Positions 567 to 22,123 of a stretch of DNA of 24,520 bases are shown in pieces. A program made the position numbers and the translations under genes. How positions within the stretch are numbered: the stretch's first letter is position 1; each line of letters begins with the position of its first letter. Below the pieces are notes generated by a model that was given only the letters and a program-made list of their open reading frames with translations, searched no databases and was not told the DNA's origin. This DNA is from a virus. Its lineage: Duplodnaviria > Caudoviricetes. The stretch is taken from the IMG/VR virus record IMGVR_UViG_3300017714_003003, positions 1 through 24,520 of that record; one strand, 5' to 3'.

Positions 567-1565
567 ATGAACTTACAATCTACAATATTAGCATTTCTTG
601 GCGGCAAACATAAAAAAACGCCATCAGGCTGGCATACTATTAATTGTCCAATGTGTGTAACACAAGGACACACCGCTGATAAAAGAAGACGTGGTGGATT
701 TAAGTTTAGTGAAGTTTCTAGTTATCATTGTTTTAATTGTGGATACAAGGCATCCTATACTGCTGGAAGATTAATAGGACGTAAAATGCGTGACTTATTA
801 ATCAACATAGGTGTTCCTGAGGCAACAGTAAAAGAATTACAACTGATTGCAATGAAGGAAAAAGAAGATGATGTAACAATTAATAAGCAAACAACTCACA
901 TAGTTGATTTTGAAGAAAAGCAATTACCAAATAATTCGGTATTATTGAGTGAAATTGTAAAAGGGGCCAACCCACCGGTCAATGCTTTATTTGTTTACAA
1001 ATATTTAATGGATAGAGGATTGGATTTTTATGATAAATTTTATTGGAGTACTGATCCTTATATGAAAATCAATGAAAGAGTAATTGTTCCATTTTATGCT
1101 AATGGAAAGTTAGTAGGATACACAGCTAGAATTATAAAAAATTATGAAAATGTACCAAAGTATTATTCAGTGGTACAACCTGGATACATTTATAATTTTG
1201 ATCACTTGTATAATGATAGAAAATATCTTATAATAGCAGAAGGTGTGTTAGATGCACTTGCAATAGATTCCGTAAGTTCTTTAGGAAATAAACTTACACA
1301 AGGACAAATAGAATTAATTAATAGCACTGACAAGACTGTCATTGTGTGTCCGGACAGAGATAAGTCTGGAGGAAATTTAATTGATGTTGCTGTAGAAAAC
1401 AATTGGCTAGTAAGCTTTCCACAATGGGAAGATAATATTAAAGATTGTGCAGAAGCAGTAAACAAATATGGAAGATTGTATACAGTACAATCAGTAATAA
1501 ATGGTGCTATAGGTAATGTAGCAAAAATTAAAGTTTTAAAAACAATAGGAGCCACAAATGGTTAA
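567..1565 (+). CDS. DNA primase (T4 gp61/DnaG-like)
   Basis: Zn ribbon CPMC...HCFNC; VPFY..GKLVGYTAR; PKYY; TOPRIM motifs AEGVLDA and PDRD; KD near C-terminus. Confidence 0.92.
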   Translation: MNLQSTILAFLGGKHKKTPSGWHTINCPMCVTQGHTADKRRRGGFKFSEVSSYHCFNCGYKASYTAGRLIGRKMRDLLINIGVPEATVKELQLIAMKEKEDDVTINKQTTHIVDFEEKQLPNNSVLLSEIVKGANPPVNALFVYKYLMDRGLDFYDKFYWSTDPYMKINERVIVPFYANGKLVGYTARIIKNYENVPKYYSVVQPGYIYNFDHLYNDRKYLIIAEGVLDALAIDSVSSLGNKLTQGQIELINSTDKTVIVCPDRDKSGGNLIDVAVENNWLVSFPQWEDNIKDCAEAVNKYGRLYTVQSVINGAIGNVAKIKVLKTIGATNG

Positions 1566-2160
1566 AGAAAGTAATAAAGATAAGAACTCACAACCAAAAA
1601 CACAACAACAACCAATGCAACCAGGTATGATGATGTGGGATGCTGGTATAATGTATTTCAGCGATGGTTTCGATAGTCAAACAACAAAGCCTGTAATTCA
1701 AGCAATTATAGAAAAGAATTTAATGCCAAACACACAAAGACCAAAAGAATTAACATTGGTTATTAACTCACCTGGTGGACAAGTGCATTCTGCATTTGCA
1801 TTGATCGACACAATGAAAGGATCAGCCATACCTGTAAAGACAGTAGGAATTGGTATGATTGCAAGTTGTGGCTTATTAACGTTTATGAGTGGAACAAAAG
1901 GCAGAAGAGTTATCACACCAAATACAAGTATCCTATCACACCAATACAGTTGGGGATCAGGTGGTAAGGAACACGAACTATTTGCAAGGGTTAGAGAATT
2001 TGAATTGAGTACAGCAAGAATGTTAGAACATTATAAGAAGTGTACTGGTTTGAGTGAAAAGAAAGTTAGAGATATTTTACTACCACCTGAAGACAGATGG
2101 TTGAGTGCCAAAGAGGCAGTAAAATATGGAATTGCAGATAAGATTGTATCAACTTATTAG
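1558..2160 (+). CDS. clpP: ClpP-family serine peptidase
   Basis: INSPGG, catalytic Ser in IASCG, His in SHQY, Asp in EDRWLSAKEAVKYGIAD; SD AGGAG 1547-1551; overlaps primase stop. Confidence 0.92.
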   Translation: MVKESNKDKNSQPKTQQQPMQPGMMMWDAGIMYFSDGFDSQTTKPVIQAIIEKNLMPNTQRPKELTLVINSPGGQVHSAFALIDTMKGSAIPVKTVGIGMIASCGLLTFMSGTKGRRVITPNTSILSHQYSWGSGGKEHELFARVREFELSTARMLEHYKKCTGLSEKKVRDILLPPEDRWLSAKEAVKYGIADKIVSTY

Positions 2161-2172
2161 GAGTAAAAATAT

Positions 2173-2616
2173 ATGAGTGACAGATTGAATATTTTATGGG
2201 CGTCTATGTGGGGTAATGCCGAAATGGTAGCTAACCAATTAAATGACATAGCAAAAGAAAAAGGTATTGAAGCAGACCTAAAAGAATTAGATGATGTTTC
2301 ATTAAGTGAACTACAAGAGTTAACAAGAGTTGCTATTGTTACGTCAACCACTGGAGAAGGTGATATGCCTGATAACGGACAAGGCTTTTGGGAAGATATT
2401 CGTGATGCCAAAGGAGTTGCATTAAACAAATTAAAATATGGTGTACTTGCATTGGGTGATAGAGCCCACGATAATTTTTGTAATGCAGGTAAAAAAGTAG
2501 ATAATCAACTAGATAAACTTGGAGCCCAAAGAGTTATTGAAAGACAAGAGTGTGACGGAAACACGGATGGATCAATTGAATGGTCAAACAAATTTTTAGA
2601 AATACTTGCAAAATGA
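2173..2616 (+). CDS. short-chain flavodoxin (MioC/CysJ-flavodoxin-domain-like)
   Basis: ILWASMWGNAE, STTGEGDMPDN, YGVLALGD...FCNAGK; SD AGGAG upstream. Confidence 0.88.
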   Translation: MSDRLNILWASMWGNAEMVANQLNDIAKEKGIEADLKELDDVSLSELQELTRVAIVTSTTGEGDMPDNGQGFWEDIRDAKGVALNKLKYGVLALGDRAHDNFCNAGKKVDNQLDKLGAQRVIERQECDGNTDGSIEWSNKFLEILAK

Positions 2617-2634
2617 AACGGATGAGGTTATAAT
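2606..2634 (+). promoter_or_regulatory. sigma70-type promoter, probably leaderless, for helicase
   Basis: TTGCAA 2606-2611, 17 bp, TATAAT 2629-2634; ATG at 2641 after 6 nt. Confidence 0.7.
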
Positions 2635-2640
2635 AAATTA

Positions 2641-4050
2641 ATGTCAGCACCAACAGTATATACAGAAGATCTACAGAAACTATTTTTAGAGTTTATGATA
2701 ACTGATCCTGAGTTATTTGTTAGGGCTAGAAATATCGTTAGTCCGCAATTTTTTAGTAAGAAATATTTTGACACAGTCACAATGTTTATGGAGCATTCTG
2801 AAAAATATCAAACACTACCAACAATACAACAAGTCCACGCCAAATGTGAAATAGAACTAACAATAGTTCCAAACATTGACGAAACACAAAAGCAATGGTT
2901 CTTAGATGAGTTCGAAACGTTTTGTAGACACAAGGCATTAGAACGAGCAATAATTGATTCAGCTGATATGTTGGAACAGGGTGAGTATGGACCTGTTGAA
3001 GAAAAAATTAAAGCGGCAGTGAGAATTGGACTAACAAAAGATTTAGGTACAGATTATTTTGAAGATCCTAAAGCAAGGCTACTAGCACTTAAAGATAATA
3101 ATGGTACAGTGAAAACAGGTTGGTCAGCATTGGATAAAAAACTGTATGGTGGCTTTAACAAAGGTGAACTTTCTATATTTGCAGGCTCATCAGGAGCAGG
3201 TAAAAGTTTATTCTTACAAAATTTGGCATTGAACTGGATTAGTCAAGGATTAAATGTCTTATATTTCACATTTGAATTAAGTGAAGAATTAAGTGCAATG
3301 AGACTTGATGCAATGATTACAGGAACGCCAACAAATGAAATATTTAAAAATATCGATGACGTGGATCTAAAAGTTAGATTGGAAAAAACTAAATCAGGTA
3401 AGTTCCAAGTTAAGTATATGGGATCAGGATCTACAACAAATGACTTAAGAAGTTATGTTAAAGAATATTCTATTCAAAAAGGTGAGCAACCTGACGTAGT
3501 ATTAGTAGACTATTTAGATTTAATGATGCCCACAAACAAAAAAATATCTCCATCAGAGATGTTTGTTAAAGATAAATTTGTATCAGAAGAACTAAGAAAC
3601 TTTGCTGTAGAACAGCAGATAGTATTAGTAACAGCATCTCAGTTAAACAGAGGTGCAATTGAAGAAGTAGAATATGATCAAAGTCATATTGCAGGCGGTA
3701 TTAGTAAAATTAATACAGCAGATAACTTAATAGGTATTTTTACAAGCAGAGCTATGCGTGAACGTGGAAGATATCAAATACAATTAATTAAAACAAGATC
3801 AAGTGGTGGAGTGGGTAGTAAAATTGATTTAGCATTTGATATTGACAGATTAAGAATTACAGACCTTAATGAAGATGATGTTGAAATAATGCCAACTTCA
3901 TCAGATGCATTGGTACAATCAATTAAGAAAAGATCATCCACAGTAACTGATAAATCAGAAGCGTCGGTGGTAGCAGAAAAGACGGAAATTACTAAAGGTT
4001 TACGTGATTTATTGAAGTCACAGCGTCAAACGTTTGATAATAGCCAATAA
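2641..4050 (+). CDS. replicative SF4 DNA helicase (T4 gp41/DnaB-like)
   Basis: Walker A AGSSGAGKS, FTFELSE, Walker B VLVDYLDLM, TASQLNR, KTR. Confidence 0.93.
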   Translation: MSAPTVYTEDLQKLFLEFMITDPELFVRARNIVSPQFFSKKYFDTVTMFMEHSEKYQTLPTIQQVHAKCEIELTIVPNIDETQKQWFLDEFETFCRHKALERAIIDSADMLEQGEYGPVEEKIKAAVRIGLTKDLGTDYFEDPKARLLALKDNNGTVKTGWSALDKKLYGGFNKGELSIFAGSSGAGKSLFLQNLALNWISQGLNVLYFTFELSEELSAMRLDAMITGTPTNEIFKNIDDVDLKVRLEKTKSGKFQVKYMGSGSTTNDLRSYVKEYSIQKGEQPDVVLVDYLDLMMPTNKKISPSEMFVKDKFVSEELRNFAVEQQIVLVTASQLNRGAIEEVEYDQSHIAGGISKINTADNLIGIFTSRAMRERGRYQIQLIKTRSSGGVGSKIDLAFDIDRLRITDLNEDDVEIMPTSSDALVQSIKKRSSTVTDKSEASVVAEKTEITKGLRDLLKSQRQTFDNSQ

Positions 4051-4076
4051 ATGCTGTTAATTTTTTGTAAAAATGT

Positions 4077-4084
4077 TATAAATA
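4077..4084 (+). promoter_or_regulatory. T4-type late promoter
   Basis: Exact TATAAATA in the intergenic gap ahead of the putative virion-protein block. Confidence 0.7.
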
Positions 4085-4109
4085 TTTCATAAGGCGGTAA
4101 TTTAGAGAT

Positions 4110-4370
4110 ATGAAGAAACAAACACGTAGCATATTGCAGGAGATTAGTAGAGTAGTTCCTAGCACTGATATGAATAATTTAGTTGAGACTCGTGCTGGAC
4201 ACGTTATATCATCAGCGATCAATGTAACTAAAATGATATATGAATCATATGATGAAGCAGTTGCTGAAGACTTAATCAAAAGATTTGTGAATAGCATTAA
4301 GACAGCAGATCCAAAGAAATTTGAGCGTGGTATAAAAAAGCTAAATGAGTCTAACGATAATGAAAGCTAA
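4110..4370 (+). CDS. hypothetical late protein (86 aa)
   Basis: ORF directly after late promoter, packed against next gene. Confidence 0.75.
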   Translation: MKKQTRSILQEISRVVPSTDMNNLVETRAGHVISSAINVTKMIYESYDEAVAEDLIKRFVNSIKTADPKKFERGIKKLNESNDNES

Positions 4371-6246
4371 TGATCTATTACAAGAAAATCCAAATCTTCA
4401 TCTTACACACCTTGAAGATCTAGCCCTATTTCAGGGTAAAGCAGGTGCCATTCGAGCAGTTGCATTTTTAAGAAATTTAGCCAACCTTGCAAAAACATCG
4501 AGCACAAAAAAGTTTAATGTGACTTTAAAATGGGACGGATCGCCGGCAGTGGTTTGTGGCACAGATCCAGCAGATGGTAAATTTTTCGTAGCTACAAAAA
4601 GTGCATTTAACAAAGATGCAAAACTTAACAAAAGTTTAGATGACATAGCAGGCAATCATCCTGATGCTGGAGAAACTAGCAAACAAGGATTACGAGATAA
4701 ATTATCACAAGCATTTACCAGTTTACAAAAATTAGGTATAAAAAATGTATTACAGGGTGATTTACTTTGGACCAAAGGAGATTTAAAATCAATACAATAT
4801 CAAGGAGAACCTTATGTTGCATTCAAACCAAATACATTAACTTATGCTGTTCCACAAAATATGCAATTAGCGAAAGAAATACAACAAGCAAATTTAGGTA
4901 TTGTGTTCCATACTAGCTACTCTGGAAAAAGTTTAGACAGTATGACAGCAAGTTTTGATATTGATTTAACAAGTTTAAACAAGACACCAGAAGTTTGGTA
5001 TGATGACGCATACATAAAAGACTTTACTGGCGTTGTAAATTTAACACAAGGTGAATTTGCCAATGTGTCACAAGCCATCAATGATGCTGAAAAATATATC
5101 AATGCTTCAGGTAACATTTTTGAGTTTTTAGAAGCAAATGAATTAGGAAAAGATTTCAAGCAAAATGTTCACGCCAATCATAACAATATGATCAGGGCAG
5201 GAGCAATTACACAGGATCCATTAGCATTTTTTTATAACTTTGCAAAAGATTATGAAGCAAGAGTTGAAAAAGCTATTGCTAATTTAAAAACAGGTAGAGA
5301 AGGACCAGCAGGACAAAGAAGATTATTAGCACTAGAGCAATGGAGAAATTACTATATGGCTAATAAAAAAAATATTCAAAATTGGTATAGTGCCTGGTTA
5401 AAATTAACAGCAATCAAAAATACGTTATATCAGAAGTTAAAAAATATTAAACAGATTGACGCTTTTGAACTGCAAGGCGATGAGTACGTAGTTAGCGATC
5501 AAGAAGGTTTCGTAGCAGTCGATCACGTAGGTAATGCTGTTAAAGTTGTTGACAGATTAGACTTTAGTAAAAAGAATTTTGCTAAAGAAAGTTTAACATT
5601 GGTTAATGATTTGAGTGAAAGCAGAGCCTATAGGTCAAGACAAGATTTAGGAAAAGGATCAGCATCAGAAAATGGTGAATTGGTTTACGCATACTGTTTA
5701 GCCTTATTAGTTTTAACTGGGGAATACAAATATCAAAAAATAGCTAGGAATTATATTATTAGAAGTATGAGTTATGGAAACTATGATTTCTTCAGATCCA
5801 ACGGAACAGATTTATATTTGTTATTACACAGCATAGTTGGATCAGGATCAATTGTACAATATGATGATGAAACTAGCAAAAAATATATTGATAGGTTGCA
5901 AAGACATTATTCAGATATTAATCAGCTATTGAAATATATCTCGAATGATAAATTTTCAAAAAATCAAACGTCATCATTATTATTAAGATTAGAAACTCAG
6001 TTAGCAGTCAAGTCACGTGATTTAAAAAAGATAAGAAGAATTGCATCTGATTGGGATCGTCTAAAAGAAAAAGAAAGATACAATATTACAATTGATATTA
6101 TGCAGTATATAAGAGACCATTCTCCTAGGAGTGAGCTCTACGGAATATTACAAAGTATGGTCAAAGAAAGAAACTTAAAAGATAGGCATAATGTAAAGCA
6201 AAAGTCTTTGCCAAAGAGTGTGGCTGTTGGGGCAGTTAAAAGATAA
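4360..6246 (+). CDS. ligase/nucleotidyltransferase-fold protein (DUF6267-like, from memory) fused to a helical C-terminal domain; probable virion protein
   Basis: KWDGS, QGDLL, EGFV and VKVV motifs in ligase order; start at ATG 4360 (MKANDLLQE) preferred over 4345. Confidence 0.65.
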   Translation: MKANDLLQENPNLHLTHLEDLALFQGKAGAIRAVAFLRNLANLAKTSSTKKFNVTLKWDGSPAVVCGTDPADGKFFVATKSAFNKDAKLNKSLDDIAGNHPDAGETSKQGLRDKLSQAFTSLQKLGIKNVLQGDLLWTKGDLKSIQYQGEPYVAFKPNTLTYAVPQNMQLAKEIQQANLGIVFHTSYSGKSLDSMTASFDIDLTSLNKTPEVWYDDAYIKDFTGVVNLTQGEFANVSQAINDAEKYINASGNIFEFLEANELGKDFKQNVHANHNNMIRAGAITQDPLAFFYNFAKDYEARVEKAIANLKTGREGPAGQRRLLALEQWRNYYMANKKNIQNWYSAWLKLTAIKNTLYQKLKNIKQIDAFELQGDEYVVSDQEGFVAVDHVGNAVKVVDRLDFSKKNFAKESLTLVNDLSESRAYRSRQDLGKGSASENGELVYAYCLALLVLTGEYKYQKIARNYIIRSMSYGNYDFFRSNGTDLYLLLHSIVGSGSIVQYDDETSKKYIDRLQRHYSDINQLLKYISNDKFSKNQTSSLLLRLETQLAVKSRDLKKIRRIASDWDRLKEKERYNITIDIMQYIRDHSPRSELYGILQSMVKERNLKDRHNVKQKSLPKSVAVGAVKR

Positions 6247-6620
6247 TGTATTCTTTAAATTCAAATAAAAATTCATATATGCAAGTAAGCGAAAACCTTG
6301 AAGTATACAGATTAATCACAACATTACCGATTGATTATCAAAATGAAGACTTGGATCTTGATAAACAAAAAGACTTTGATCACCTGCATCAGTTGATTAC
6401 TATGTATGGTAAAGTGTTATTCTTTTCAAAACCACGTAAAGCAATACACAAAGGTAAACAAGTTTATGAGGTTACATTTGGTGTTGATCAGCCAGATTTA
6501 TTTGAGTTAGGATCAAATCCAGTGGGAGTGCTTGAAAATCGTCTAAATAATATTGTTTTGTTTAGTGATACTATATGCACTCAAGGAGTAAATACAAACA
6601 TATGGATTACTAAATTCTAA
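6246..6620 (+). CDS. hypothetical protein
   Basis: 124 aa ORF coupled to previous gene by TAATG. Confidence 0.7.
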   Translation: MYSLNSNKNSYMQVSENLEVYRLITTLPIDYQNEDLDLDKQKDFDHLHQLITMYGKVLFFSKPRKAIHKGKQVYEVTFGVDQPDLFELGSNPVGVLENRLNNIVLFSDTICTQGVNTNIWITKF

Positions 6621-6635
6621 GGAGCAAAGAGAATA

Positions 6636-6896
6636 ATGGATAAGATACCGTCAAATAACCCAGCACCAAAAACACAAGATAGTGTTGAATTTGGTAGTTT
6701 GGAAGTCCACGTGGCATTAAGCCGTGAAAGACACGAAGAAATTAACTCAAGATTTGACAGGGTAGAAGCCCATATGGTCAAAATAGAAGAAGAAGTTGAT
6801 AAAGGTTTTGAAAAGATGCAAAAAATTATACTATGGTCAGCAGGTACAATGTTTTTTACATTAATTTCGATGCTAATAACTTCAATTCTAAAGTAA
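6636..6896 (+). CDS. small coiled-coil protein with one C-terminal transmembrane helix
   Basis: SD AAGGAG; heptad-like EEINSRFDRVEAHMVKIEEEV; hydrophobic IILWSAGTMFFTLISMLITSIL. Confidence 0.75.
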   Translation: MDKIPSNNPAPKTQDSVEFGSLEVHVALSRERHEEINSRFDRVEAHMVKIEEEVDKGFEKMQKIILWSAGTMFFTLISMLITSILK

Positions 6897-6905
6897 GGAA
6901 TTACA

Positions 6906-7238
6906 ATGCTAGTAAAAGACATAGTAGGCGAAGGCACACCACAAATATACGGAAAGTATAAGAATACTCTCAAGAGAAGATATAGATGCCAATCGGGTCC
7001 AAGAAAAGGAAGAATAGTAGCCGACCCAGCCACTTGTACAGCACCAATCAATATTCAAAAGAAACAAACGATGAAGGCCACTAGAGCCAAACGTGGTACA
7101 ATACAAGGTAAACTATCATCATATACTAAAAAATACAATCCAACTTCTAAGATTGCGAAAAAATTAAACAAGCAAGTTAAGAAAAGAAGATCCCCAAAAT
7201 TAAAAGCTTTGAAGCCTATTAAGTTAGGAAAAAGATAA
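6906..7238 (+). CDS. highly basic protein, paralog A
   Basis: K/R-rich; YRCxxGxxKGRIVxxPxxCxAP and TKKYNP shared with next ORF; SD TAAGGA. Confidence 0.8.
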   Translation: MLVKDIVGEGTPQIYGKYKNTLKRRYRCQSGPRKGRIVADPATCTAPINIQKKQTMKATRAKRGTIQGKLSSYTKKYNPTSKIAKKLNKQVKKRRSPKLKALKPIKLGKR

Positions 7239-7239
7239 A

Positions 7240-7533
7240 ATGTTTATTAGCGATATTATAACAGATGGTATACACGAAGCCAAAATGATATTTGGCCGTA
7301 CCGGTAAAAACGTTGTAAAGAAATATCGTTGCACATTTGGTAGAAAAAAAGGCAGAATTGTTAGCAATCCTAGTGTTTGCTCTGCACCATTGGATATCAA
7401 GAAACGTTTTACTATGAAGAAAATGAAAGCGAGAATGGGTGCTAGGTTACAAAGAAAAATCAAGTTTACTAAAAAGTATAATCCTGCTTCACGTAGGGTT
7501 AGGGCATTAAACAAGTCACTGAGACGAAAATAA
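7240..7533 (+). CDS. highly basic protein, paralog B
   Basis: Collinear with 6906..7238. Confidence 0.8.
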   Translation: MFISDIITDGIHEAKMIFGRTGKNVVKKYRCTFGRKKGRIVSNPSVCSAPLDIKKRFTMKKMKARMGARLQRKIKFTKKYNPASRRVRALNKSLRRK

Positions 7534-7536
7534 TAC

Positions 7537-7565
7537 TTGATCTTTGATAATAAATTTAGTATAGT
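7537..7565 (+). promoter_or_regulatory. sigma70-type promoter, probably leaderless
   Basis: TTGATC 7537-7542, 17 bp, TATAGT 7560-7565; ATG at 7572 after 6 nt; no SD. Confidence 0.6.
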
Positions 7566-7571
7566 ATTAAT

Positions 7572-8330: not shown

Positions 8331-8338
8331 ACATTACT

Positions 8339-9513: not shown

Positions 9514-9515
9514 TT

Positions 9516-10216: not shown

Positions 10217-11527
10217 ATGACAACAACATTTGTAAGATTAAAAAACAGAAGAGGAAATCGTACCGATCTACCCCAGCCACTAGCTGAAGGTGAATTAGGT
10301 CTAGCACTAGATACACGTGAATTGTATATTGGTGGTGGTGACCAATCATCTAAGAATAGAATGGTGCAAGTAGGTAACTTTTTAAATGCACAATCAAGTG
10401 TACAAAGTTTAATTGATACAAGATTAGTTGTTTTTAAAATGGCTTCAACTCAAAGTTTTGTAGGTAACGGATCAGATACGAGTTCAACTGTATTAAATGG
10501 TGGAACAGCTTTGACATTTCCTACTGGCAAAGACACATCAGGGTTTGGTTCTGACAAACTTAACGTATTCAAATACAACATCAATAAATTACCTTCAAAA
10601 ATTTCAACATCAGGTTATTCAGTTAGTGTATCAGGTTCAAATTTAACTGTTACATTTAACTCATCAGGCAAGCCAGAAAACAATTCAGTAATTTGTGTAA
10701 CAAAATGGCTTGATACAGAAATAATAGATTACGTTAAAAAAGCTTATGCAGATGAAATGTCAATTGCCACATCAGCAGTAACACACGCAGTTTCTAAAAC
10801 AGAAGATGTTATTACCTTTAGTGCCACAGGTAAAACAACATATACATTATACATTGACGTATCAAGTGGTACAGGATTTATTGACATAGGAGATCAAGGT
10901 GCTCAACAAGTTGCTAAACAGAATTCATTTGCTACACAATTGGCCGCAGAAAACGGAATTGGATCAGCAGGTGTCAATACAGCAGTTTTCATACGTGGTA
11001 CAATGGCAGGGCTAGGATACACAGCACAAAAAGTTAGTGTACCTGGATCTTTATTGATTGAAACGGATAGTCCGCAACAAGCAGTACTATTAGCTAAATT
11101 TTTAAACACAGCCGTTGGAACAGCGGAAGTGTCAGTAGCAAACAACATTAAAATTTTTACACAAGACAGCAAACCGGAGTTTGCTAACAACCAATATGTT
11201 GGACCAACTTTCTTAATCAAGAAAACTTTAACCAAAGGTGGTGCAACAGCAGATGTTACAAGTTTTTCAGCAACTGAAACTAATACCTACTTTTTAGATT
11301 ATTCATTGAAGATAGGCTCAGCCTATGCCGTAGGTTGTATCAGAATCATATCAGATGGTACTAACGTACACTATATCGATGACAGAACAGAAACAGCAAG
11401 TACAAGTGATGTAGTATTTTCTACACCAGCAGTTAGTGGTGGTATAATCAAGCTACAATACACTAATTCTAATTCTTCCACTGATGCTACCCTATCCTAT
11501 GTTTTAAAACGTTGGTTAACCAGTTAA
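10217..11527 (+). CDS. virion fibre/structural protein
   Basis: N-terminal RRG...LAEGELGLALDTRELYIG motif typical of phage fibre (Mtd N-terminal-like) anchors; S/T/G-rich beta-type body. Confidence 0.7.
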   Translation: MTTTFVRLKNRRGNRTDLPQPLAEGELGLALDTRELYIGGGDQSSKNRMVQVGNFLNAQSSVQSLIDTRLVVFKMASTQSFVGNGSDTSSTVLNGGTALTFPTGKDTSGFGSDKLNVFKYNINKLPSKISTSGYSVSVSGSNLTVTFNSSGKPENNSVICVTKWLDTEIIDYVKKAYADEMSIATSAVTHAVSKTEDVITFSATGKTTYTLYIDVSSGTGFIDIGDQGAQQVAKQNSFATQLAAENGIGSAGVNTAVFIRGTMAGLGYTAQKVSVPGSLLIETDSPQQAVLLAKFLNTAVGTAEVSVANNIKIFTQDSKPEFANNQYVGPTFLIKKTLTKGGATADVTSFSATETNTYFLDYSLKIGSAYAVGCIRIISDGTNVHYIDDRTETASTSDVVFSTPAVSGGIIKLQYTNSNSSTDATLSYVLKRWLTS

Positions 11528-15081: not shown

Positions 15082-15401
15082 TGTTAAAAGAAACAATAAA
15101 AAAAGATGATATCATAGCATTAAAGCTTGTATCTGGAGAAGAAATTATTGCTAAGGTTGTTGTAAATGATGAAACAACTCTTACTGTACAAAAACCATTA
15201 ACACTAATTCATACGCCAAAAGGACTAGCTATGAGTCAGTATATATTAATGCAAGATATGACTCTTCCAGTACAAATTGCTAAAGAGAAAATTATAGTGA
15301 CTACTAGAGCTAACACAATGGCCAGTGAGCAATATACTTCAACTCTGTCTTCAATTAAGAAACCAACACCAGAAGAAAAATCAAGCATAATCACTAATTA
15401 A
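15081..15401 (+). CDS. small beta-rich (Sm-like fold) phage protein
   Basis: LKLVSGEEIIAKV...KPLTL pattern; TAATG-coupled to nrdB. Confidence 0.6.
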   Translation: MLKETIKKDDIIALKLVSGEEIIAKVVVNDETTLTVQKPLTLIHTPKGLAMSQYILMQDMTLPVQIAKEKIIVTTRANTMASEQYTSTLSSIKKPTPEEKSSIITN

Positions 15402-15412
15402 GTAGGTATAAA

Positions 15413-15432
15413 AACAGTATATAAATACTGTT
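15413..15432 (+). promoter_or_regulatory. late promoter inside a perfect inverted repeat
   Basis: AACAGTAT-ATAA-ATACTGTT contains TATAAATA 15420-15427 and ends at the base before ATG 15433. Confidence 0.7.
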
Positions 15433-15717
15433 ATGCCAGCAGTAACAAGATTAGGAGATGTATGCACAGGACACGGATGTTTTCCGTCTAGAGCCAGTGT
15501 GAGTGGATCTCCAACAGTTTTCGTAAATGGAATTCCTGTACACAGACAAGGTGATGCTTGGGACACCCATTGTTGCGTAATATGTCACGGAGGTATATTA
15601 GCCAGTGGTTCGCCGAGTGTGTTTGCTGAAATGATGCAAGTTGGTAGAATAGGTGATCCGGTTGATTGTGGTAGTTCCGTAGCAAGTGGTTCAGGAAACG
15701 TTTTCATAGGAGGATAG
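15433..15717 (+). CDS. PAAR tail-spike tip protein (T4 gp5.4-like)
   Basis: PAVTRLGD, GH, GSPTVFVNGIPVHRQGD, RIGD, GSGNVFIG; His/Cys metal ligands. Confidence 0.93.
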   Translation: MPAVTRLGDVCTGHGCFPSRASVSGSPTVFVNGIPVHRQGDAWDTHCCVICHGGILASGSPSVFAEMMQVGRIGDPVDCGSSVASGSGNVFIGG

Positions 15718-15719
15718 TG

Positions 15720-16652
15720 ATGTCAAAAAATGTTTGGGGTATAGGAAAAGACATATTAAATTTTCCAACTGATATAGTACCAGTATCGAATTTAATGAGT
15801 GACACACAAAAGAATTTAATTAATAGTGGATTGCTCGATCAAGTAGATTTCACAGATCCTTGGGGAAGAAAATCTAAAGCATATCCTGGTTTACAAAATC
15901 CTCACAATGATACTTTAACACAAATTGCTAACGGTTGGAACTCGAGAATGTCAGTTATGCCAGATGGTTGGAATGACAGCAACTATGCCAACAGAGCAGT
16001 GGTAGATGGTTCAGCATTGGGTAATGGAATGAGTTCTAGGAAACTAACTGATACAGAAATTAAAGATATTGGATTTGCAGAAGGTATATTAAAAGACTTC
16101 ACTCACCTGACTAATAGACAATCTGGAATGGATGTTTTGGAATATTCTAATCCAAATAGTATGTGGTCAGCATTAGGAAATACTGACACGTATGGAGCTA
16201 TAGTTGGATTGCCAACAACAGCAAGTTTTCCAAGTGGTATTGTAGTTCCAGGTGTAACAAATTATCTTGGTGTAGCTAGAACTATGAATGAGCTTGGCCA
16301 AATTTTAAGTAACGTTCCAAAAGGATATTCATCAGGTCCTTGTAAATTCATTGAAGATATAATGAATGCCATAATGAAAGGTGGAGCAATATTAAATGAT
16401 ATATTAGCCAAAATACTTGAAGTGCTTGGTATCATTGGTCTTGTAAACTCAATACTTGGAATGATCAGGATGCTGTTAGATATGATACTTGAAGATCTAA
16501 GAACGTTAGGTAGTGCAATTGAAAGAATGAAGCAGGCGGCATTATCTGGATTGTTGGAAGCATTAATGAAAGATCCTTGTATGAAATATCTAATCACGTC
16601 AGGCCTAGCAATAGCTGGTACAGTAGCAATACTAAAAACCACATCACTGTAA
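15720..16652 (+). CDS. hypothetical late protein with hydrophobic helical C-terminus
   Basis: SD AGGAGG favours ATG 15720 (GTG 15717 possible); follows PAAR. Confidence 0.7.
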   Translation: MSKNVWGIGKDILNFPTDIVPVSNLMSDTQKNLINSGLLDQVDFTDPWGRKSKAYPGLQNPHNDTLTQIANGWNSRMSVMPDGWNDSNYANRAVVDGSALGNGMSSRKLTDTEIKDIGFAEGILKDFTHLTNRQSGMDVLEYSNPNSMWSALGNTDTYGAIVGLPTTASFPSGIVVPGVTNYLGVARTMNELGQILSNVPKGYSSGPCKFIEDIMNAIMKGGAILNDILAKILEVLGIIGLVNSILGMIRMLLDMILEDLRTLGSAIERMKQAALSGLLEALMKDPCMKYLITSGLAIAGTVAILKTTSL

Positions 16653-16658
16653 TTTTTC

Positions 16659-16686
16659 TTGTATTTTTTTAAATTTCGTGTATAAT
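16659..16686 (+). promoter_or_regulatory. sigma70-type promoter for tmRNA
   Basis: TTGTAT 16659-16664, 16 bp, TATAAT 16681-16686. Confidence 0.65.
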
Positions 16687-16691
16687 AACTC

Positions 16692-16946
16692 TACAACGTT
16701 GAAGTTGTCGTAATAAATTATATGGACGTGGGGGCAGTACCCACCACCTCCACCATAAACACATTTACCGAGTGTGCTTTTGATGGGGGTGAACCAGGAT
16801 CGACAGTAATTGAAAGGGCAATGGAGTTGTCCGGATGTAAGCTCGGTTAACGCGAACAAATTATAAATGCAGATGAAAATCTAGCACTTGCGGCCTAATA
16901 CGTTAGGCTAACGGGGTCCGGAGGTACCTGGCAACAGAAACCTCCA
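16692..16946 (+). ncRNA. ssrA: circularly permuted (two-piece) tmRNA, alphaproteobacterial type
   Basis: T arm GTGGG-GGCAGTA-CCCAC 16728-16744; acceptor 3' strand CACCTCC-A-CCA 16745-16755 precedes the 5' strand GGGGGTG 16785-16791 (G3:U70); 29 nt intervening segment; GGATCGAC; resume context ATAAAT-GCA; tag ADENLALAA-stop 16869-16898; outer ends approximate. Confidence 0.95.
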
Positions 16947-16968
16947 CTTATTATAGTTGGAGACATAA

Positions 16969-17247
16969 ATGAAAAAAATTAAAAAATTTATAAAAGACAG
17001 TTACACATTTTCACCACTTGCATTTTGGTGTGAAATGGTTGAAGCTATATTTTTAATTTCAGCAAGTGCCATACTGACGTTTACAGTTTTAGATCCTGCA
17101 ACGAGAATTTTTATACCATTATATTTTATTGGTTCTATCTTGGGTGTAGTCAGTGCAGTAATACGTAAAGCGGCCTTTGTAATTGTGTTATGCAGTTGGT
17201 TCACAATAATGAATGCAATAGCATTGATACAGTTGTTTATAATATAG
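16969..17247 (+). CDS. small membrane protein (about 3 TM helices)
   Basis: SD GGAGA; three hydrophobic stretches. Confidence 0.8.
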   Translation: MKKIKKFIKDSYTFSPLAFWCEMVEAIFLISASAILTFTVLDPATRIFIPLYFIGSILGVVSAVIRKAAFVIVLCSWFTIMNAIALIQLFII

Positions 17248-17259
17248 TTAAATAAAGAT

Positions 17260-17640
17260 ATGGCAGAAGTACACAAACATTTAATAATTAGAGCAGAAAC
17301 TAATAAAACACCCTCTGACCCAGCTTGGGCTCATCAGTGGTTAACAAAGTTAGTAAAAAAAATAGGAATGAAAATTTGTCAAGGTCCTATTACTGCCTAC
17401 GTTAATGTTCCAGGTAACAAAGGATTGACTGGATTGGTAGTGATTGAAACATCTCATATTGCTTTGCATTGTTGGGACGAAGAAACACCAGGCCTGGTAC
17501 AACTTGACGTTTACACTTGCGGACCATTGGATGAACAAATTATTTTTAATGAAATAAAAAAGTTTGATCCTGTGTGTGTAGAATACAAGTATTTAGATAG
17601 AAAAAGAAACTTGAAAGAAATTGATGTCAGTAAAAAATAA
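17260..17640 (+). CDS. speD: S-adenosylmethionine decarboxylase proenzyme family
   Basis: HKHLII, GLTGLVVIETSHIALHCW (pyruvoyl-forming Ser), LDVYTCG. Confidence 0.85.
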   Translation: MAEVHKHLIIRAETNKTPSDPAWAHQWLTKLVKKIGMKICQGPITAYVNVPGNKGLTGLVVIETSHIALHCWDEETPGLVQLDVYTCGPLDEQIIFNEIKKFDPVCVEYKYLDRKRNLKEIDVSKK

Positions 17641-18028
17641 AATAGCCGATTGGGGTAAACAATTATCAATACTTGAGGGTATAGATAGATTACAATATCT
17701 AGTTGATCTAGCAGATAAGAAAACAACGCTACCAGCTGAAAAAAGAATCAATGCAAATATGATTCCTGGTTGTATATCACAAATTTGGGTAGACATTAGG
17801 CTAGAAGATAACAAAGTTATTGCAGAATATGATTCTGATGCAATGATAACAAAAGGAATTACAAGTGTAGTGTGTGATTGCTTTACAGGATCTACTAAAG
17901 AAGAAGTTAGTAATATAGTTGTAGAAGACTTTCAAAATCTTAATATCCAACAATTATTAACAGCACAAAGACAAAATGGTTTAGGAAACCTTATCGCTAC
18001 CATCATAAACAAGTCCCAGCAATTATAG
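17624..18028 (+). CDS. sufE: SufE-family sulfur acceptor
   Basis: IPGCISQIW (acceptor Cys), DSDAMITKG, LTAQRQNG. Confidence 0.88.
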   Translation: MSVKNKIADWGKQLSILEGIDRLQYLVDLADKKTTLPAEKRINANMIPGCISQIWVDIRLEDNKVIAEYDSDAMITKGITSVVCDCFTGSTKEEVSNIVVEDFQNLNIQQLLTAQRQNGLGNLIATIINKSQQL

Positions 18029-18064
18029 TAGTAGTTAAGTTTTGGTTAAACACCGTTTAAATAG

Positions 18065-18529
18065 TTGGTGTCAAAACTTAGGAGAGGCATAAGTGCAATT
18101 TTCGTAACATTGATGTTACTCGTTGCTGTTGTATCTTTGGATTCGCATTCCGAGGCTAAAACAAGTTCTGACAAATTTATAATTGATTTCAGAATTAATG
18201 TTTCATATGGGTTAGGTTGGCGAGTAGATACTCCAGATCCATTACCAATAACACCAGGACAGGAATACACTATCAATTTAATGGCAATCAATGATATGGA
18301 TTCTTCTAAAATATCCGAAGTGATGTATGGATATTTGCCACCTGAATTTGCAAGATATTTTCTATTGATTGAATGTTTTTGTTATGATTCTACTAAATTA
18401 AGAGCAAAAGAAGTTGCAGAGCTACCAATAGTGTTCGTAATCGATCCAGCTATCCTAAAAGATAAAAAATTTAAAAAGAATAAAAATATAACTGTTAGGT
18501 TTAATTTTTACCCGCAGATAAAACGTTGA
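18065..18529 (+). CDS. ctaG: CtaG/Cox11-like copper chaperone, divergent
   Basis: N-terminal TM, ECFCY (Cox11 CFCF), ELPIVFVIDP, terminal ITVRFNFYP; start codon uncertain. Confidence 0.7.
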   Translation: MVSKLRRGISAIFVTLMLLVAVVSLDSHSEAKTSSDKFIIDFRINVSYGLGWRVDTPDPLPITPGQEYTINLMAINDMDSSKISEVMYGYLPPEFARYFLLIECFCYDSTKLRAKEVAELPIVFVIDPAILKDKKFKKNKNITVRFNFYPQIKR

Positions 18530-18554
18530 CTAAATCATAATTATAACATATAAT
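18526..18554 (+). promoter_or_regulatory. sigma70-type promoter for tRNA-Ser and downstream genes
   Basis: TTGACT 18526-18531, 17 bp, TATAAT 18549-18554. Confidence 0.8.
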
Positions 18555-18593
18555 AGTTTTAATGTAATTGAATTTTTGTTACAGCAATAAGTG

Positions 18594-18683
18594 GGAGAGA
18601 TGGCAGAGTGGTTGAATGCACCGGTCTTGAAAACCGGCAAAGGCGCAAGTCTTTCCTGAGTTCGAATCTCAGTCTCTCCGCCA
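18594..18683 (+). tRNA. tRNA-Ser(UGA)
   Basis: Acceptor GGAGAGA/TCTCTCC, G discriminator, encoded CCA; anticodon arm CCGGT-CTTGAAA-ACCGG; long variable arm; TTCGAATC T loop. Confidence 0.97.
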
Positions 18684-18702
18684 GATAAAAGAAAGAAGAA
18701 CT

Positions 18703-18945
18703 ATGGCTAAAGTTGACGATAGAAAATTAAATAAAGCTTATGATATAATTTTTCAGCAGGTAGAAAAATTAACTAAAGATGGAGTAGAACCAATTGTAAT
18801 TGCTGGTACGTTAATGGCACAATCGATGAGACTATATAGAACTGTATTATCAGATGATGACTTTGAAAAATTAATGGATACTGTATTTGGTAAGCTGGAT
18901 GAGATTGAACCATATGAGGCAGATGACAAAACTATGCTTCACTAA
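18703..18945 (+). CDS. hypothetical protein (80 aa)
   Basis: ORF fills the gap between tRNA and ferredoxin. Confidence 0.7.
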   Translation: MAKVDDRKLNKAYDIIFQQVEKLTKDGVEPIVIAGTLMAQSMRLYRTVLSDDDFEKLMDTVFGKLDEIEPYEADDKTMLH

Positions 18946-18970
18946 ATATGTATAAAATAGAAATAAAAAT

Positions 18971-19339
18971 ATGACCTATTATGTAAATCAAGCCTGTGTA
19001 ATGTGTAAACATACTGACTGTGTAGAGGTATGCCCAGTTGACTGTTTCTATGAAGGCGAAAACTTTTTAGCAATCAACCCAGATGAATGTATTGACTGTG
19101 GAGTCTGCGAACCAGAATGTCCTGTTGATGCAATCAAACCAGACTCACACGATGAGCCAGACAAAGATAAATGGATTGAAATTAATAAAAAATATTCAAG
19201 TGGTGATAACAGGTGGCCAGTTTTAACAAAAATGATAGAACAAATGGAAGAAGCAGAAAAATATAATCCAGATACTTACAAAGAAGATAAGATGTCTTTG
19301 TTATCAGAAAAACCAGGACCAGGAGATGAAGGACGATGA
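18971..19339 (+). CDS. fdxA: dicluster ferredoxin, FdxA family
   Basis: [21 protein letters not shown]...[12 protein letters not shown]. Confidence 0.95.
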
Positions 19340-20376
19340 GTAAAAAATTTAGTGAAAAATGGAAAGAAGAAAAAGAAGCTAAAAAAAGAAAGCGAATGGA
19401 AAAAGATGGAGTCAAAATTGATGCTGAAGTCGGTAAAGGATTAGACAAAGTAATACAAAAAGAAGTTAAGATTGATCTTAACACTCTTAAAGATAAACAT
19501 TTGTTTATTGCAACTCCGGCCTACGGTGGATTAGTTGGAGAAGCATATCTAAAAGCTATGGTAAGAGTAGGTATATTGTTCAAGCAATACAATTTAAACT
19601 TTACACTTTGTACAATAGCAAATGAATCTTTAATTACTCGAGGTAGAAATACACTGACAGCGATGTTTATGTCAGATCCAAAATTTACTGATATGATGTT
19701 TATAGATGCTGACATTCATTTTGAAGCAGAGTCAGTTATAAAGATGTGGGCTTCTTTGTATAGACCACAATCAGAAAATGTAGAAGTTGTAGTTGGAGCA
19801 TATCCTAAAAAAACAATCAACTGGGAACAGATTCATAAGGCAGTAAAAGATGGAGCATCGGTTGAAGAGATGCAACAGCAACAAGGTTCGTATGTTTTGA
19901 ATATGAGAACAGATAACAAAGGTAGAATTCCATTACAAGATGGATTGATTCCTGTGTATGATGGCGGAACAGGTTTTATGATGTACAAAAGACAAGTCAT
20001 ACAGAAGATGTTTGACAAATGGCCTGACTTACATTATAAAAATGACTTAAACACCAATCCTAAGCACGATCCTTATATGTATGCTTTGTTTGATACTACG
20101 ATTGATCCAACAACAAGACGTTATCTGTCTGAAGACTATACTTTTTGTAGACGATATCAAGAATTAGGTGGAACAATTTGGATGGATCCTTCTATTAATT
20201 TAGATCATCAAGGAAACTATTTGTTCAAAGGTAACATTTCTAATCAATTTACATATTCTGGTGAAGCAACACACGAAGAAATGAAAAACATTAATAAAGA
20301 AATGGAAAAAAACATAGCACCAACCCCAAACGAAGGAAAGTCTGAAAGCGATTCAGTTGATGACACAGCACTCTAA
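19336..20376 (+). CDS. GT-A fold glycosyltransferase-like protein
   Basis: [22 protein letters not shown] (DxD), GTGFM, SEDYTFC, LDHQG. Confidence 0.78.
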
Positions 20377-20611
20377 AACTATAAAAAAAGAAATTGACGA
20401 ATTAAAAAGAGAAGTCAGACAACAAGCAATAATAACTAGAAGAACAATAGTTAAGACATCTCAAAAGAATGAAGAATATAGTTTAAGAAGTAAAGTGCAA
20501 AGGCAAGAGAAGAAATTAAAACAAGAACAGTACTTGCGTAGAAAATATCCATCTGTTAATAACGCATACAAGCAGTACCTAATGACAATGAGACTAGTAA
20601 AATCTAAATAA
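20357..20611 (+). CDS. hypothetical basic coiled-coil protein
   Basis: Tightly packed ORF; start 20357 or 20360. Confidence 0.65.
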   Translation: MMTQHSKTIKKEIDELKREVRQQAIITRRTIVKTSQKNEEYSLRSKVQRQEKKLKQEQYLRRKYPSVNNAYKQYLMTMRLVKSK

Positions 20612-20971
20612 ATGACAAACTGGCATAATGTTAATGACCTTTACATCGTTTGCAATAAAAAAGTAGCAAACGTACCAAAGAAAAAAGCAACAATAGATTG
20701 GGTTGGAATAGATTGTGTATACAAAATTAAAGTTAATAACAAAATTGTACACGTGGGCAGGTCGGACACTTGCAAAAAACACGGTGGTGCTGAAAAAACA
20801 AGGAAAGCGATAGTACAATTAATGGGTTGGGAAACACGAAATCCAGGAATTACTACAACAAAGCTATGGGAAAACATTAAAAAAACTCATAAACCAAAAA
20901 TTGGCGATATTAAAATTGGAATTATAGCGACAAACAGTATAGAAAAAGTGTATAATAAAGAAGCAATATGA
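20612..20971 (+). CDS. hypothetical protein, degenerate GIY-YIG-like
   Basis: CVYKI-x7-HVGRS resembles the GIY...YIG spacing. Confidence 0.45.
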   Translation: MTNWHNVNDLYIVCNKKVANVPKKKATIDWVGIDCVYKIKVNNKIVHVGRSDTCKKHGGAEKTRKAIVQLMGWETRNPGITTTKLWENIKKTHKPKIGDIKIGIIATNSIEKVYNKEAI

Positions 20972-21372
20972 TATTCAATAGAAACAAAGATCATCTTTTA
21001 CATCAGGTTTTTAAGAGCTTAAATACTTTTGTGGACAACGATATGTTTAAGCAACACAAAAACGATACTGTAAAATCATTAGAATACCTATCCAAAAGAA
21101 CAGGCGAACTACAACTTGAGTATCAAGAATTAATGTCTTGTTGGAAATGGTATAATCTTGATCGTCCTAACAGGCAATCAAAAGTTGATTTAGCACATAG
21201 TATGATGTACTATGAACAAGATACAAAAATGTTAGCAAGAGCAGTTGCACTAAGAAAATTTTCAGCAAAACTTTTTAAAGGAGGAGATTATGAACCAAAC
21301 ATCGGGACTTTTCAAGCGACACGAAAATCTATCACACAAGGTAGAAATGTTGGAAAAGGAAAGAAAACTTAA
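20968..21372 (+). CDS. hypothetical protein
   Basis: ATGA-coupled to previous ORF; last 83 nt overlap the next gene. Confidence 0.6.
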   Translation: MIFNRNKDHLLHQVFKSLNTFVDNDMFKQHKNDTVKSLEYLSKRTGELQLEYQELMSCWKWYNLDRPNRQSKVDLAHSMMYYEQDTKMLARAVALRKFSAKLFKGGDYEPNIGTFQATRKSITQGRNVGKGKKT

Positions 21373-21463
21373 TAGGACTTTTCAGCACAAAGCAGAATTA
21401 TTAAGACTTAAAAAAGAAAAACTGTTAATTAAAGAACAAATAGAAAGAATAAAGAAGAATTAA
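21290..21463 (+). CDS. 57 aa coiled-coil protein, DUF465/YdcH-like (absent from ORF track)
   Basis: SD AGGAGGAG 21279-21286; MNQTSGLFKRHENLSHKVEMLEKERKLNRTFQHKAELLRLKKEKLLIKEQIERIKKN. Confidence 0.7.
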   Translation: MNQTSGLFKRHENLSHKVEMLEKERKLNRTFQHKAELLRLKKEKLLIKEQIERIKKN

Positions 21464-21464
21464 T

Positions 21465-21887
21465 ATGTACGAGTACAGATGTAAAATAGTAAAAATCATC
21501 GATGGTGATACTGTTGATGTTGATATAGATTTAGGATTTGGGGTATGGATGCACAAAGAACGTGTTAGATTATTTGGCATTGATACTCCAGAGTCAAGAA
21601 CTAGAGATAAAGAAGAAAAGAAATATGGACTAATGTCTAAAAAGTTTGTCCAAGAAAGATATCCAGTTGGTTCAGATGCAATATTAATAACGCACAAAGA
21701 CGCAACTGGAAAGTTTGGACGTATATTAGGTGAGCTAAAATACAATAATACCACAATCAATAAAAAAATGATTACTGAAGGTTATGCAGTTGCATACCAC
21801 GGACAATCAAAAGAAGATGTTGAGTCAGAACACTTAAAAAATAGAAAAAAATTGGACAAGTTGATTACTAAAGTTACTAAAATATAA
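21465..21887 (+). CDS. thermonuclease (SNase-like) family nuclease
   Basis: IIDGDTV, RVRLFGIDTPE, GKFGRILG. Confidence 0.9.
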   Translation: MYEYRCKIVKIIDGDTVDVDIDLGFGVWMHKERVRLFGIDTPESRTRDKEEKKYGLMSKKFVQERYPVGSDAILITHKDATGKFGRILGELKYNNTTINKKMITEGYAVAYHGQSKEDVESEHLKNRKKLDKLITKVTKI

Positions 21888-22123
21888 TGAGACTTGATTT
21901 GCACGGTTTTTCAATTCACGATGCTTGGAGGTTTTTCCACCAATGGGTGCAAGAGGCACAAAAAGATAATACAGTAAAGTCGGTAATAGTTGTAACAGGG
22001 CAAGGACAAATTTATAACGAATTGCCAAGATGGTGTGAAAATATGAGTTTTGTTAGAGATGTCCAGCCACATTTTGGAAGCGGTGCTTATCAAATTAATT
22101 TTTATAAAAAAAGACGTGTATAA
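21887..22123 (+). CDS. stand-alone Smr-domain protein
   Basis: LDLHG, VIVVTGQG, LPRW, GSGAY in 78 aa; TAATG-coupled to SNase. Confidence 0.88.
   Translation: MRLDLHGFSIHDAWRFFHQWVQEAQKDNTVKSVIVVTGQGQIYNELPRWCENMSFVRDVQPHFGSGAYQINFYKKRRV

Follow-up and report, generated by a model that had tools for sequence, protein, structure and literature searches.

A permuted tmRNA, a bare Smr domain and a divergent ClpP in a fragment of an Atu_ph07-like marine jumbo phage: probably separate members of an inherited host-like gene set

Does a phage that encodes an Smr-family nuclease, a transfer-messenger RNA (tmRNA) and a ClpP protease possess a ribosome-rescue route of its own, in which mRNA is cut at collided ribosomes, the unfinished products are tagged and the tagged products are degraded? 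The question is raised by the IMG/VR virus record IMGVR_UViG_3300017714_003003, the whole of which (24,520 nucleotides, completeness about 10%) is the window analysed here, and for which an earlier note had proposed such a cut, tag and degrade set. Comparison with relatives points to a looser arrangement: the tmRNA, the stand-alone Smr domain and the window's ClpP (ClpP B; A, B and C are our own labels for the ClpP-family genes of the relatives) would be separately placed members of a large inherited host-like translation and proteostasis set that cooperate at most loosely, the tmRNA acting with host SmpB to tag products for a phage ClpX and a canonical ClpP. The probability that we attach to this reading is about 0.6.

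The window is about one tenth of an Atu_ph07-like marine jumbo phage. Its G+C content is 32-35%, its sizeable open reading frames are all on the + strand, and it aligns with the viral contig G018 (242,646 bp) in five collinear blocks, at positions 154,251-180,277 and with nucleotide identities of 81-87%; at least 14 marine DNA runs, belonging to 11 studies, contain near-identical sequence. The top cultured match of ClpP B is in the Sinorhizobium jumbo phage Phosso (60% identity), and the DUF6267 protein of the window has its closest cultured matches in Melnitz, HTVC008M and cyanomyophages (33-37% identity). The collinearity with G018 also gives a meaning to the end of the record, where the final 17 bases, 24504-24520 (ATGAGCGATAAAGAAAT), open the clpX gene: in G018 (L117), closely similar upstream DNA is followed by ATGAGCGATAAAGAGATTAAAATGAAATGCTCG.., the beginning of ClpX (MSDKEIKMKCSFC..). 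The caveat that no clpX lies in the window holds, then, for a family search, which finds none, but not for these final bases, with which the gene begins.

What follows clpX can be read in the relatives. The ClpX proteins of G018, G011 and G001 score 529.5, 541.9 and 575.1 bits, respectively, against TIGR00382 (cut-off 370.75), and all three keep the zinc finger, Walker A, GYVG, RKH and IGF motifs; the roles of the ClpX loops are treated in the available text of PMC9035409. Downstream in G018 come ClpX, IF3, bS21, SufS, bL12, SufBD, an aldehyde dehydrogenase, a porin-like protein, Hsp20 and DnaK, and further on ClpS, SbmA/BacA, NifU and a canonical ClpP (281 bits). In G001, a complete relative with terminal repeats (328,149 bp), the order is a staphylococcal-nuclease-like endonuclease (SNase), EF-G, Smr, two cold-shock proteins, uL11, PTPS, a tetraspanin-like protein, a radical-SAM protein, ClpX, IF3 and bS21, and then Hsp20, DnaK, ClpS and the canonical ClpP; this genome also encodes a ClpA-like protein, at 881 bits below the equivalog cut-off of 993. 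The adjacency of Smr and PTPS and the order ClpX-IF3..S21 are common to the marine clade and to the soil phage Phosso, which points to inheritance as a block and not to the repeated assembly of a pathway.

The tmRNA is complete and its tag ends in LAA, as had been claimed, with Rfam, ARAGORN, the tag frame and the encoded CCA in agreement. The alphaproteobacterial model RF01849 is covered in full at 162 bits (gathering threshold 50), the permuted model RF04321 matches 16693-16898 at 120.3 bits (threshold 47), and ARAGORN calls a permuted tmRNA at 16660-16989 with the tag ADENLALAA, which is read from resume codon through stop at 16869-16898 as GCA GAT GAA AAT CTA GCA CTT GCG GCC TAA. An encoded CCA closes the acceptor piece (..CCTCCACCA, about 16747-16755; ..CCACCA, about 16750-16755). 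The tags of G011, G018 and G001 are identical to that of the window, and an ARAGORN survey of 16 loci of relatives gave plausible tags on permuted tmRNAs in 11, nine of the tags ending in LAA (ADENLALAA three times, ANDNYAPEMALAA, ANDNYSPEMALAA, ANDNRAPEMALAA, ANDNFASEDFALAA, ANDNYVPVDYALAA in Melnitz and ANFNEYALAA in HTVC008M) and two in MAA or IAA; the other five loci gave GTPTLVLIG twice, which is doubtful, an LEAA-ended tag once and no call twice. At three loci (L096, L097 and L098, in G014, G013 and G008) the Rfam match extends over about 630-650 bases, against the usual 300 or so, and ARAGORN reports either nothing or the implausible GTPTLVLIG; they could be tmRNA genes whose two pieces are set apart by a long insertion.

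Around the window's tmRNA, a promoter scan gave six promoter-like sites, against 3.4 +/- 1.9 in shuffled sequence, with none directly upstream, and a terminator scan found none. At gathering threshold, the Rfam scan of the window returned just the tmRNA and the tRNA, and hence no riboswitch family. Among the RNA-library contigs (four runs), X17 has a depth of 392 over the tmRNA bin, with loose ends inside the gene; this fits the tmRNAs of other organisms, and the contigs, which show neither level nor strand, were not used for expression. SmpB was found neither in the window, as the earlier note had cautioned, nor in any of the five large relatives or the five cultured phages searched; beyond the window, clpX is present in G018, G001 and G011.

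The ClpP of the window has the intact Ser-His-Asp triad that had been described, in a register that matches both solved ClpPs and the canonical ClpP of the relatives. The 200-residue protein matches CLP_protease (PF00574) from profile position 17, and its alignment with solved ClpPs runs from about residue 38 through to the C terminus and brings the Ser of IASCG, the His of SHQ and the Asp of EDRW into place. G001 and G018 each have three ClpP-family genes, all with the catalytic triad: the canonical A (271 and 281 bits, respectively), the window-type B (115 and 110 bits) and a third, C (95 and 101 bits). ClpP B and ClpP A are 28% identical, with Ser, His and Asp invariant; the canonical N-terminal stretch, ..VV.Q.SRGERSYDI.SRLLKERI.., is absent from ClpP B, which has in its place a Q/P/M-rich segment conserved between the window and G001. 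The window protein has no N-terminal axial loops of the kind that, according to the available text of PMC9035409, gate the axial pore of ClpP and take on an ordered form on the docking of ClpX by its IGF loops.

The setting of ClpP B is that of replication. In the window the gene starts before the primase gene has ended, and in IMG/VR, where the family was estimated at about 920 stored stretches (595 confirmed), a primase, a DnaB helicase or both were detected in 58 of the 80 loci kept, with flanks of up to 10 kb, and ClpP alone in the other 22. Judged by sequence, the window ClpP is a divergent paralog without canonical gating loops that is located in a replication module. The canonical paralog outside the window would be the likeliest to degrade tagged proteins with ClpX. 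Hetero-oligomeric Clp rings built from the three paralogs are a possibility. In G001, ClpP C adjoins a gp25-like baseplate gene.

The Smr protein, for its part, is a stand-alone domain with intact DLH and GxG motifs, on which profile, fold model and motif alignment agree, and it begins three residues ahead of DLH; the lack of an N-terminal ribosome-binding extension, noted earlier, is thus confirmed. The Pfam match (PF01713) is marginal, at 27.4 bits against a cut-off of 25.7. A profile of the window protein and eight phage homologues retrieved 237 proteins at E<=1e-3, and PF01713 was present in 119 of the 120 matches listed. The AlphaFold model has a mean predicted local distance difference test score (pLDDT) of 90, and the five best Foldseek matches in the PDB are all Smr domains (template-modelling (TM) scores 0.73-0.79), with 2zqe, the MutS2 of T. 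thermophilus, at the top (TM 0.78, root-mean-square deviation 2.0), followed by 9a5o_B, 4och, 8qpp_W and 3fau (human N4BP2). D4, L5, H6, G38 and G40, in the motifs DLH and GQG, are invariant across the nine aligned phage sequences. A tblastn search with Smr against 50,697 phage records gave nothing at E<=1e-5; a Pfam-based search of whole records later found the Smr of Phosso, so this blank reflects a limit of sensitivity.

The origin of the domain is suggested by its bacterial counterparts. Eight alphaproteobacterial genomes were compared, taken from the 360 that matched among 401 sampled (358 of 399 without G070 and G270, which are flagged as unpublished). DLHG is preceded by 79-118 residues in seven of the eight homologues and by 20 in the remaining, short one; the long N-terminal parts mostly start with an acidic-xxx-W..V.PL motif. 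Over its whole length the window Smr can be aligned with the SMR domains of these proteins (26-34% identity), with two loop deletions, one after GxG and the other before the C-terminal G.GA.Y strand. The Smr of Phosso, with 119 residues and annotated as 'Smr/MutS family protein', retains about 46 residues before DLHG, and this N-terminal part (TDTERKLWDDFTKGVKLN) resembles the acidic-xxx-W motif of SmrB-like proteins. From these alignments, the phage Smr looks like a trimmed SmrB-type protein. In E. coli SmrB, as reported in the available text of 10.1101/2021.08.16.456513, an N-terminal acidic-xxx-aromatic helix hooks uS2 and is required for ribosome binding, an SMR-only form does not bind ribosomes, and cleavage depends on DxH, the middle residue of GxG being dispensable; the window Smr has no such hook. 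The mini-Smr proteins of L085, L086, L087, L089 and L082 (100-108 residues) have a basic C-terminal tail ending in ..LLKK(W/F)G.KG that is missing from the window protein, and this tail might stand in for the missing N-terminal hook.

Whether these genes belong together can be judged from their distribution. Among the six complete genomes compared, G001 and Phosso hold all parts except SmpB; in Melnitz and HTVC008M the tmRNA stands without ClpP, ClpX and Smr; BUCT-ZZ01 and RsoM2USA have ClpP B and neither Smr nor ClpX, with a tmRNA match at threshold level in the former (50.2 bits) and below threshold in the latter (36.9 bits). Smr, tmRNA, ClpP B, ClpX and canonical ClpP occur together in G001, G018, G022 and Phosso, and all but the canonical ClpP in G011, a 46-kb fragment. 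The 17 contigs picked by ClpP B have Smr in eight, tmRNA in nine and ClpX in four, and the 12 picked by Smr have any ClpP in five, ClpX in three and tmRNA in four. Smr against tmRNA on the ClpP B contigs, which are mostly fragments, gives both in five, Smr only in three, tmRNA only in four and neither in five (Fisher p = 0.64), and a second table on fragments gives p = 1.0; as 28 of the 29 metagenomic contigs are incomplete and were chosen by one of the genes, these tests are uninformative. On this sequence comparison, the co-occurrence of the genes is best described as a lineage trait. The part of the earlier proposal that treated the three genes as one set is not supported: they form no operon, and, as Melnitz, HTVC008M, BUCT-ZZ01 and RsoM2USA illustrate, they need not occur together.

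In the reading that we prefer, the tmRNA would be charged and delivered by host AlaRS and SmpB, nonstop products would be tagged, their ALAA-ended tags would be read by the phage ClpX, in which RKH, GYVG and IGF are kept, and the tagged products would be broken down in the canonical ClpP, whose gene lies some 16 kb further along in relatives. ClpP B would have a different or auxiliary role, for example as a hetero-oligomer partner or as an ungated peptidase. The mini-Smr would be an active endonuclease derived from an SmrB-type ancestor that has lost the ribosome hook, with mRNA on ribosomes, or free nucleic acid cleaved together with the adjacent SNase, as candidate substrates. An arm of tmRNA, ClpX and canonical ClpP, working with host SmpB, is plausible at the level of the lineage, because the lineage has LAA, MAA or IAA tags, a motif-complete ClpX and a canonical ClpP. 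To this extent the cut, tag and degrade proposal survives, since the means to tag and to degrade are present, and it fails in that the window's ClpP is not the canonical partner. The link from Smr to the tag-and-degrade arm is put forward as a hypothesis.

Several points weigh against this reading. For this phage, the canonical ClpP and all but the first 17 bases of clpX are read from relatives at 81-87% identity, since the window does not reach them; the timing of expression, the tagging and the degradation by this set are predictions; and ClpP B might still dock ClpX. In addition, Smr lies in a translation-rich stretch of this clade, with EF-G, CSD proteins and uL11 adjoining it in G001, bS21 is found within about 5 kb of Smr in the closest relatives, and the Phosso protein keeps the SmrB-like N-terminal motif. 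According to the available text of 10.1101/2021.08.16.456513, the SMR domain contacts uS11 and bS21, and operons of S21 and SMR occur in bacteria. This context, the proximity of bS21 and the Phosso motif favour a ribosomal role more than our cautious wording allows. All considered, a ribosomal role and a role on free nucleic acid appear about equally likely for the mini-Smr.

The latter role is the core of the alternative that survives best, in which Smr would be a nucleic-acid nickase that works with the overlapping SNase in the breakdown of host DNA or RNA or in DNA metabolism and would thereby supply the ribonucleotide reductase encoded nearby, with no part in events on the ribosome; we hold this to be doubtful. 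The stop codon of the SNase overlaps the start codon of Smr by one base (TAATG), and exact contigs of two RNA libraries cross the junction (X15, 20983-22004; X16, 21769-21999), which is compatible with co-transcription or with DNA carry-over. Nuclease activity is also reported for isolated Smr domains of T. thermophilus MutS2 (available text of PMC1807967). Scanning IMG/VR with the single Smr protein gave one locus and an alignment-based scan 105, of which 80 were kept, one representative being scanned for 23 of the 24 commonest clusters of neighbours. In these 80 loci, mini-Smr lies beside a 5'-3' exonuclease in 22 (with a MoxR-like ATPase in 24 loci and DUF2201 in 16 alongside), directly after a family-B DNA polymerase in 15 and after an HD_4 hydrolase in nine, so that most mini-Smr genes, being those of other phage clades, adjoin genes of DNA replication. 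An SNase is found within 4 kb upstream in just eight of the 80. The pairing with SNase is not obligate, however, because in G001 a full-length EF-G gene (L111:4008-6077; 689 residues, all five domains) separates the two, Smr being followed by the two cold-shock proteins and uL11; CSD and uL11 follow Smr in five further loci. Moreover, the Smr of Phosso has the SmrB-like motif and no SNase neighbour, and the window's SMR domain, as described above, aligns over its whole length with alphaproteobacterial SmrB-like proteins.

A more ambitious proposal is that a cosmopolitan lineage of marine jumbo phages, possibly of SAR11-like hosts, runs a collision-to-degradation route of its own, in which a hook-less Smr that cuts stalled mRNA, a short-tag tmRNA with host SmpB, and ClpX-ClpP with the ungated ClpP B as a second ring would sustain translation in the face of RNase-based abortive-infection defences of the host or strip ribosomes from host mRNA; this we consider speculative and unlikely.

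The dedicated pathway as first conceived, in which Smr cuts at collided ribosomes, the tmRNA tags and the window's own ClpP degrades, clearing ribosomes and recycling amino acids, seems to us improbable. It is true that all three parts are intact, that they reside with ClpX and canonical ClpP in the four genomes listed above and, canonical ClpP excepted, in the G011 fragment, that translation genes abound around Smr in this clade, and that DxH, essential for SmrB cleavage, is invariant. Nevertheless, the three genes stand at 1.6, 16.6 and 21.9 kb, so that the earlier caveat of dispersal was well placed: they are spread over 20 kb with unrelated metabolic genes between them, and a perfect sigma-70 consensus, a consensus match only, directly follows the Smr stop upstream of the PTPS/QueD-like gene, between Smr and the downstream unit. 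In G001 the tmRNA is found elsewhere, at 94.9 kb, which leaves about 150 kb between it and the others (ClpP B at 244.7 kb, Smr at 268.1 kb). The occurrence of the tmRNA alone in Melnitz and HTVC008M and of ClpP B without Smr or ClpX in BUCT-ZZ01 and RsoM2USA tells in the same direction, as do the absent axial loops of the window ClpP and the failure of SMR-only SmrB to bind ribosomes; the Fisher test on the fragments (p = 0.64) is, as noted above, uninformative.

Finally, that the window ClpP is a prohead (head-maturation) protease, as its top PHROG match (phrog_94 'head maturation protease', 2.2e-27) and the annotation of ClpP-like proteins in some jumbo phages would have it, is highly improbable and was ruled out, since G001 and G018 each have a prohead protease of the T4 gp21 type (PF03420; 93 and 91 bits; four records searched, the other two being fragments), so that head maturation does not call for the ClpP paralogs, and the ClpP B gene lies between primase and DnaB helicase, away from head genes.

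The positions of the main features are collected in Table 1.

Table 1. Features of the 24,520-nucleotide window, with the evidence for each
Feature	Position	Strand	Evidence
DNA primase	567..1565	+	phrog_47 DNA primase 3e-33; Toprim_2; 3' end overlaps ClpP paralog start
ClpP paralog B	1558..2160	+	Pfam CLP_protease 111.9 bits; triad intact
DnaB-like replicative helicase	2641..4050	+	phrog_19 4.6e-73; DnaB_C
Two-piece (permuted) alphaproteobacterial-type tmRNA	16644..16948	+	RF01849, RF04321, ARAGORN
tRNA-Ser(TGA)	18594..18683	+	ARAGORN; Rfam tRNA 60.6 bits
Staphylococcal-nuclease-like endonuclease	21465..21887	+	Pfam SNase 58.2 bits; phrog_452 endonuclease 1.2e-35
Bare Smr domain protein, 78 residues	21887..22123	+	Pfam Smr, AlphaFold model, Foldseek, DLH + GQG motifs
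Sigma-70 consensus TTGACA-17-TATAAT	22125..22153	+	12/12 matches; consensus match only
clpX, first 17 bases (ATG AGC GAT AAA GAA AT = MSDKE..)	24504..24520	+	collinear relative G018

The remainder of the window combines replication, nucleotide and virion functions (primase, DnaB helicase, class Ia ribonucleotide reductase, a PAAR protein and virion proteins) with host-like metabolic genes (flavodoxin, ferredoxin, SufE, CtaG/Cox11, S-adenosylmethionine (AdoMet) decarboxylase and a QueD-like PTPS). At 17260-19339, AdoMet decarboxylase, SufE, the cytochrome c oxidase copper-assembly protein CtaG/Cox11, tRNA-Ser and a ferredoxin with DUF3470 follow one another, and SufS, SufBD and NifU in the relatives, added to the host-like genes of the window, suggest a phage-borne Fe-S (iron-sulphur) assembly set. 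Amid the genes for replication and nucleotide metabolism lie a 436-residue protein (10217-11527) with a match slightly below threshold to Mtd_N, the major tropism determinant N-terminal domain, and a PAAR spike protein (15433-15717). About 1.2 kb of G018 (169,772-170,968), between the ribonucleotide reductase small-subunit region and the PAAR gene, has no equivalent near 15400 of the window. A 555-residue protein at 22635-24302 has a weak tetraspanin-like N-terminal match (24 bits, under the cut-off) and is conserved in G018, G001 and further relatives, where it lies between PTPS and clpX. As to the host, the alphaproteobacterial tmRNA type and the low G+C content are only leads; a search for a donor or host with a relative's ClpX against genome contigs gave best identities of only 44-55%, spread over many phyla, from which none could be named.

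Among known phages, Phosso (PV764938.1, 469 kb) is the closest counterpart, with an Smr beside PTPS, ClpX followed by IF-3, S21, a canonical ClpP, a 60%-identical ClpP B, a ClpA-like protein, a two-piece tmRNA and no SmpB. It forms the Atu_ph07-like group with AP-J-162 and with the phage Atu_ph07 of Agrobacterium, from which the window phage differs in being marine and in its G+C content of 32-35%. Relative to Phosso, the window Smr has lost the N-terminal part of about 46 residues, the tag is the short ADENLALAA, and gene content between shared anchors differs (SNase, the tetraspanin-like protein and Fe-S assembly genes). For Sinorhizobium phage AP-J-162, the available text of PMC11242549 reports that clpX adjoins IF-3 and that there are six Clp proteins and a tmRNA. 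The complement of Clp, IF3, S21 and tmRNA is therefore already known, being described in AP-J-162 and annotated in Phosso. LBVG_1, a metagenomic jumbo phage from Lake Biwa with a predicted LD12 host, is likewise Atu_ph07-like and carries genes resembling those of Pelagibacterales, bS21 among them; unlike the window phage it is freshwater, and tmRNA and Clp go unmentioned in its text as available (10.1101/655167).

More distant comparisons concern single parts. The marine T4-like myophages Melnitz (Methylophilales) and HTVC008M (Pelagibacter) share with the window a permuted alphaproteobacterial-type tmRNA with an ALAA-ended tag, but differ from it in the absence of ClpP, ClpX and Smr, and Melnitz has a glutamine riboswitch next to ssrA, where the window has no riboswitch family. 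For the Melnitz tmRNA, protein tagging and degradation for the recycling of amino acids were already proposed (PMC9004378, available text). Huge phages with tmRNA and SmpB have also been described (PMC7162821, available text), and ClpP, ClpS, ClpA and ClpX have been noted in jumbo phages (PMC7824862). The route of E. coli SmrB, tmRNA/SmpB and ClpXP resembles the phage parts in the SMR domain with DxH and GxG, the LAA-ended tag and, in the lineage, a ClpX with RKH, GYVG and IGF; it differs in that the phage Smr has no N-terminal hook and has shortened loops after GxG and before the C-terminal strand, and in that the phage genes are scattered and encode no SmpB, the phage side being known from sequence alone. 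Literature searches combining Smr with tmRNA, ClpP and phage, judged by titles and the starts of abstracts, showed among the papers listed no proposal of this three-step route in a phage.

The window itself is of value in tying a marine clade to cultured giant phages, in placing the beginning of clpX at the very end of the record and in revealing the ClpP encoded here as non-canonical. Should such widespread phages indeed adjust ribosome rescue and protein turnover through a tmRNA, a ClpX, a ClpP and perhaps an Smr of their own, this would add to the takeover of the host a layer beyond the known ribosomal-protein and tRNA genes, and the phage Smr proteins would be natural minimal SMR domains with which the SMR core could be probed without its ribosome hook.

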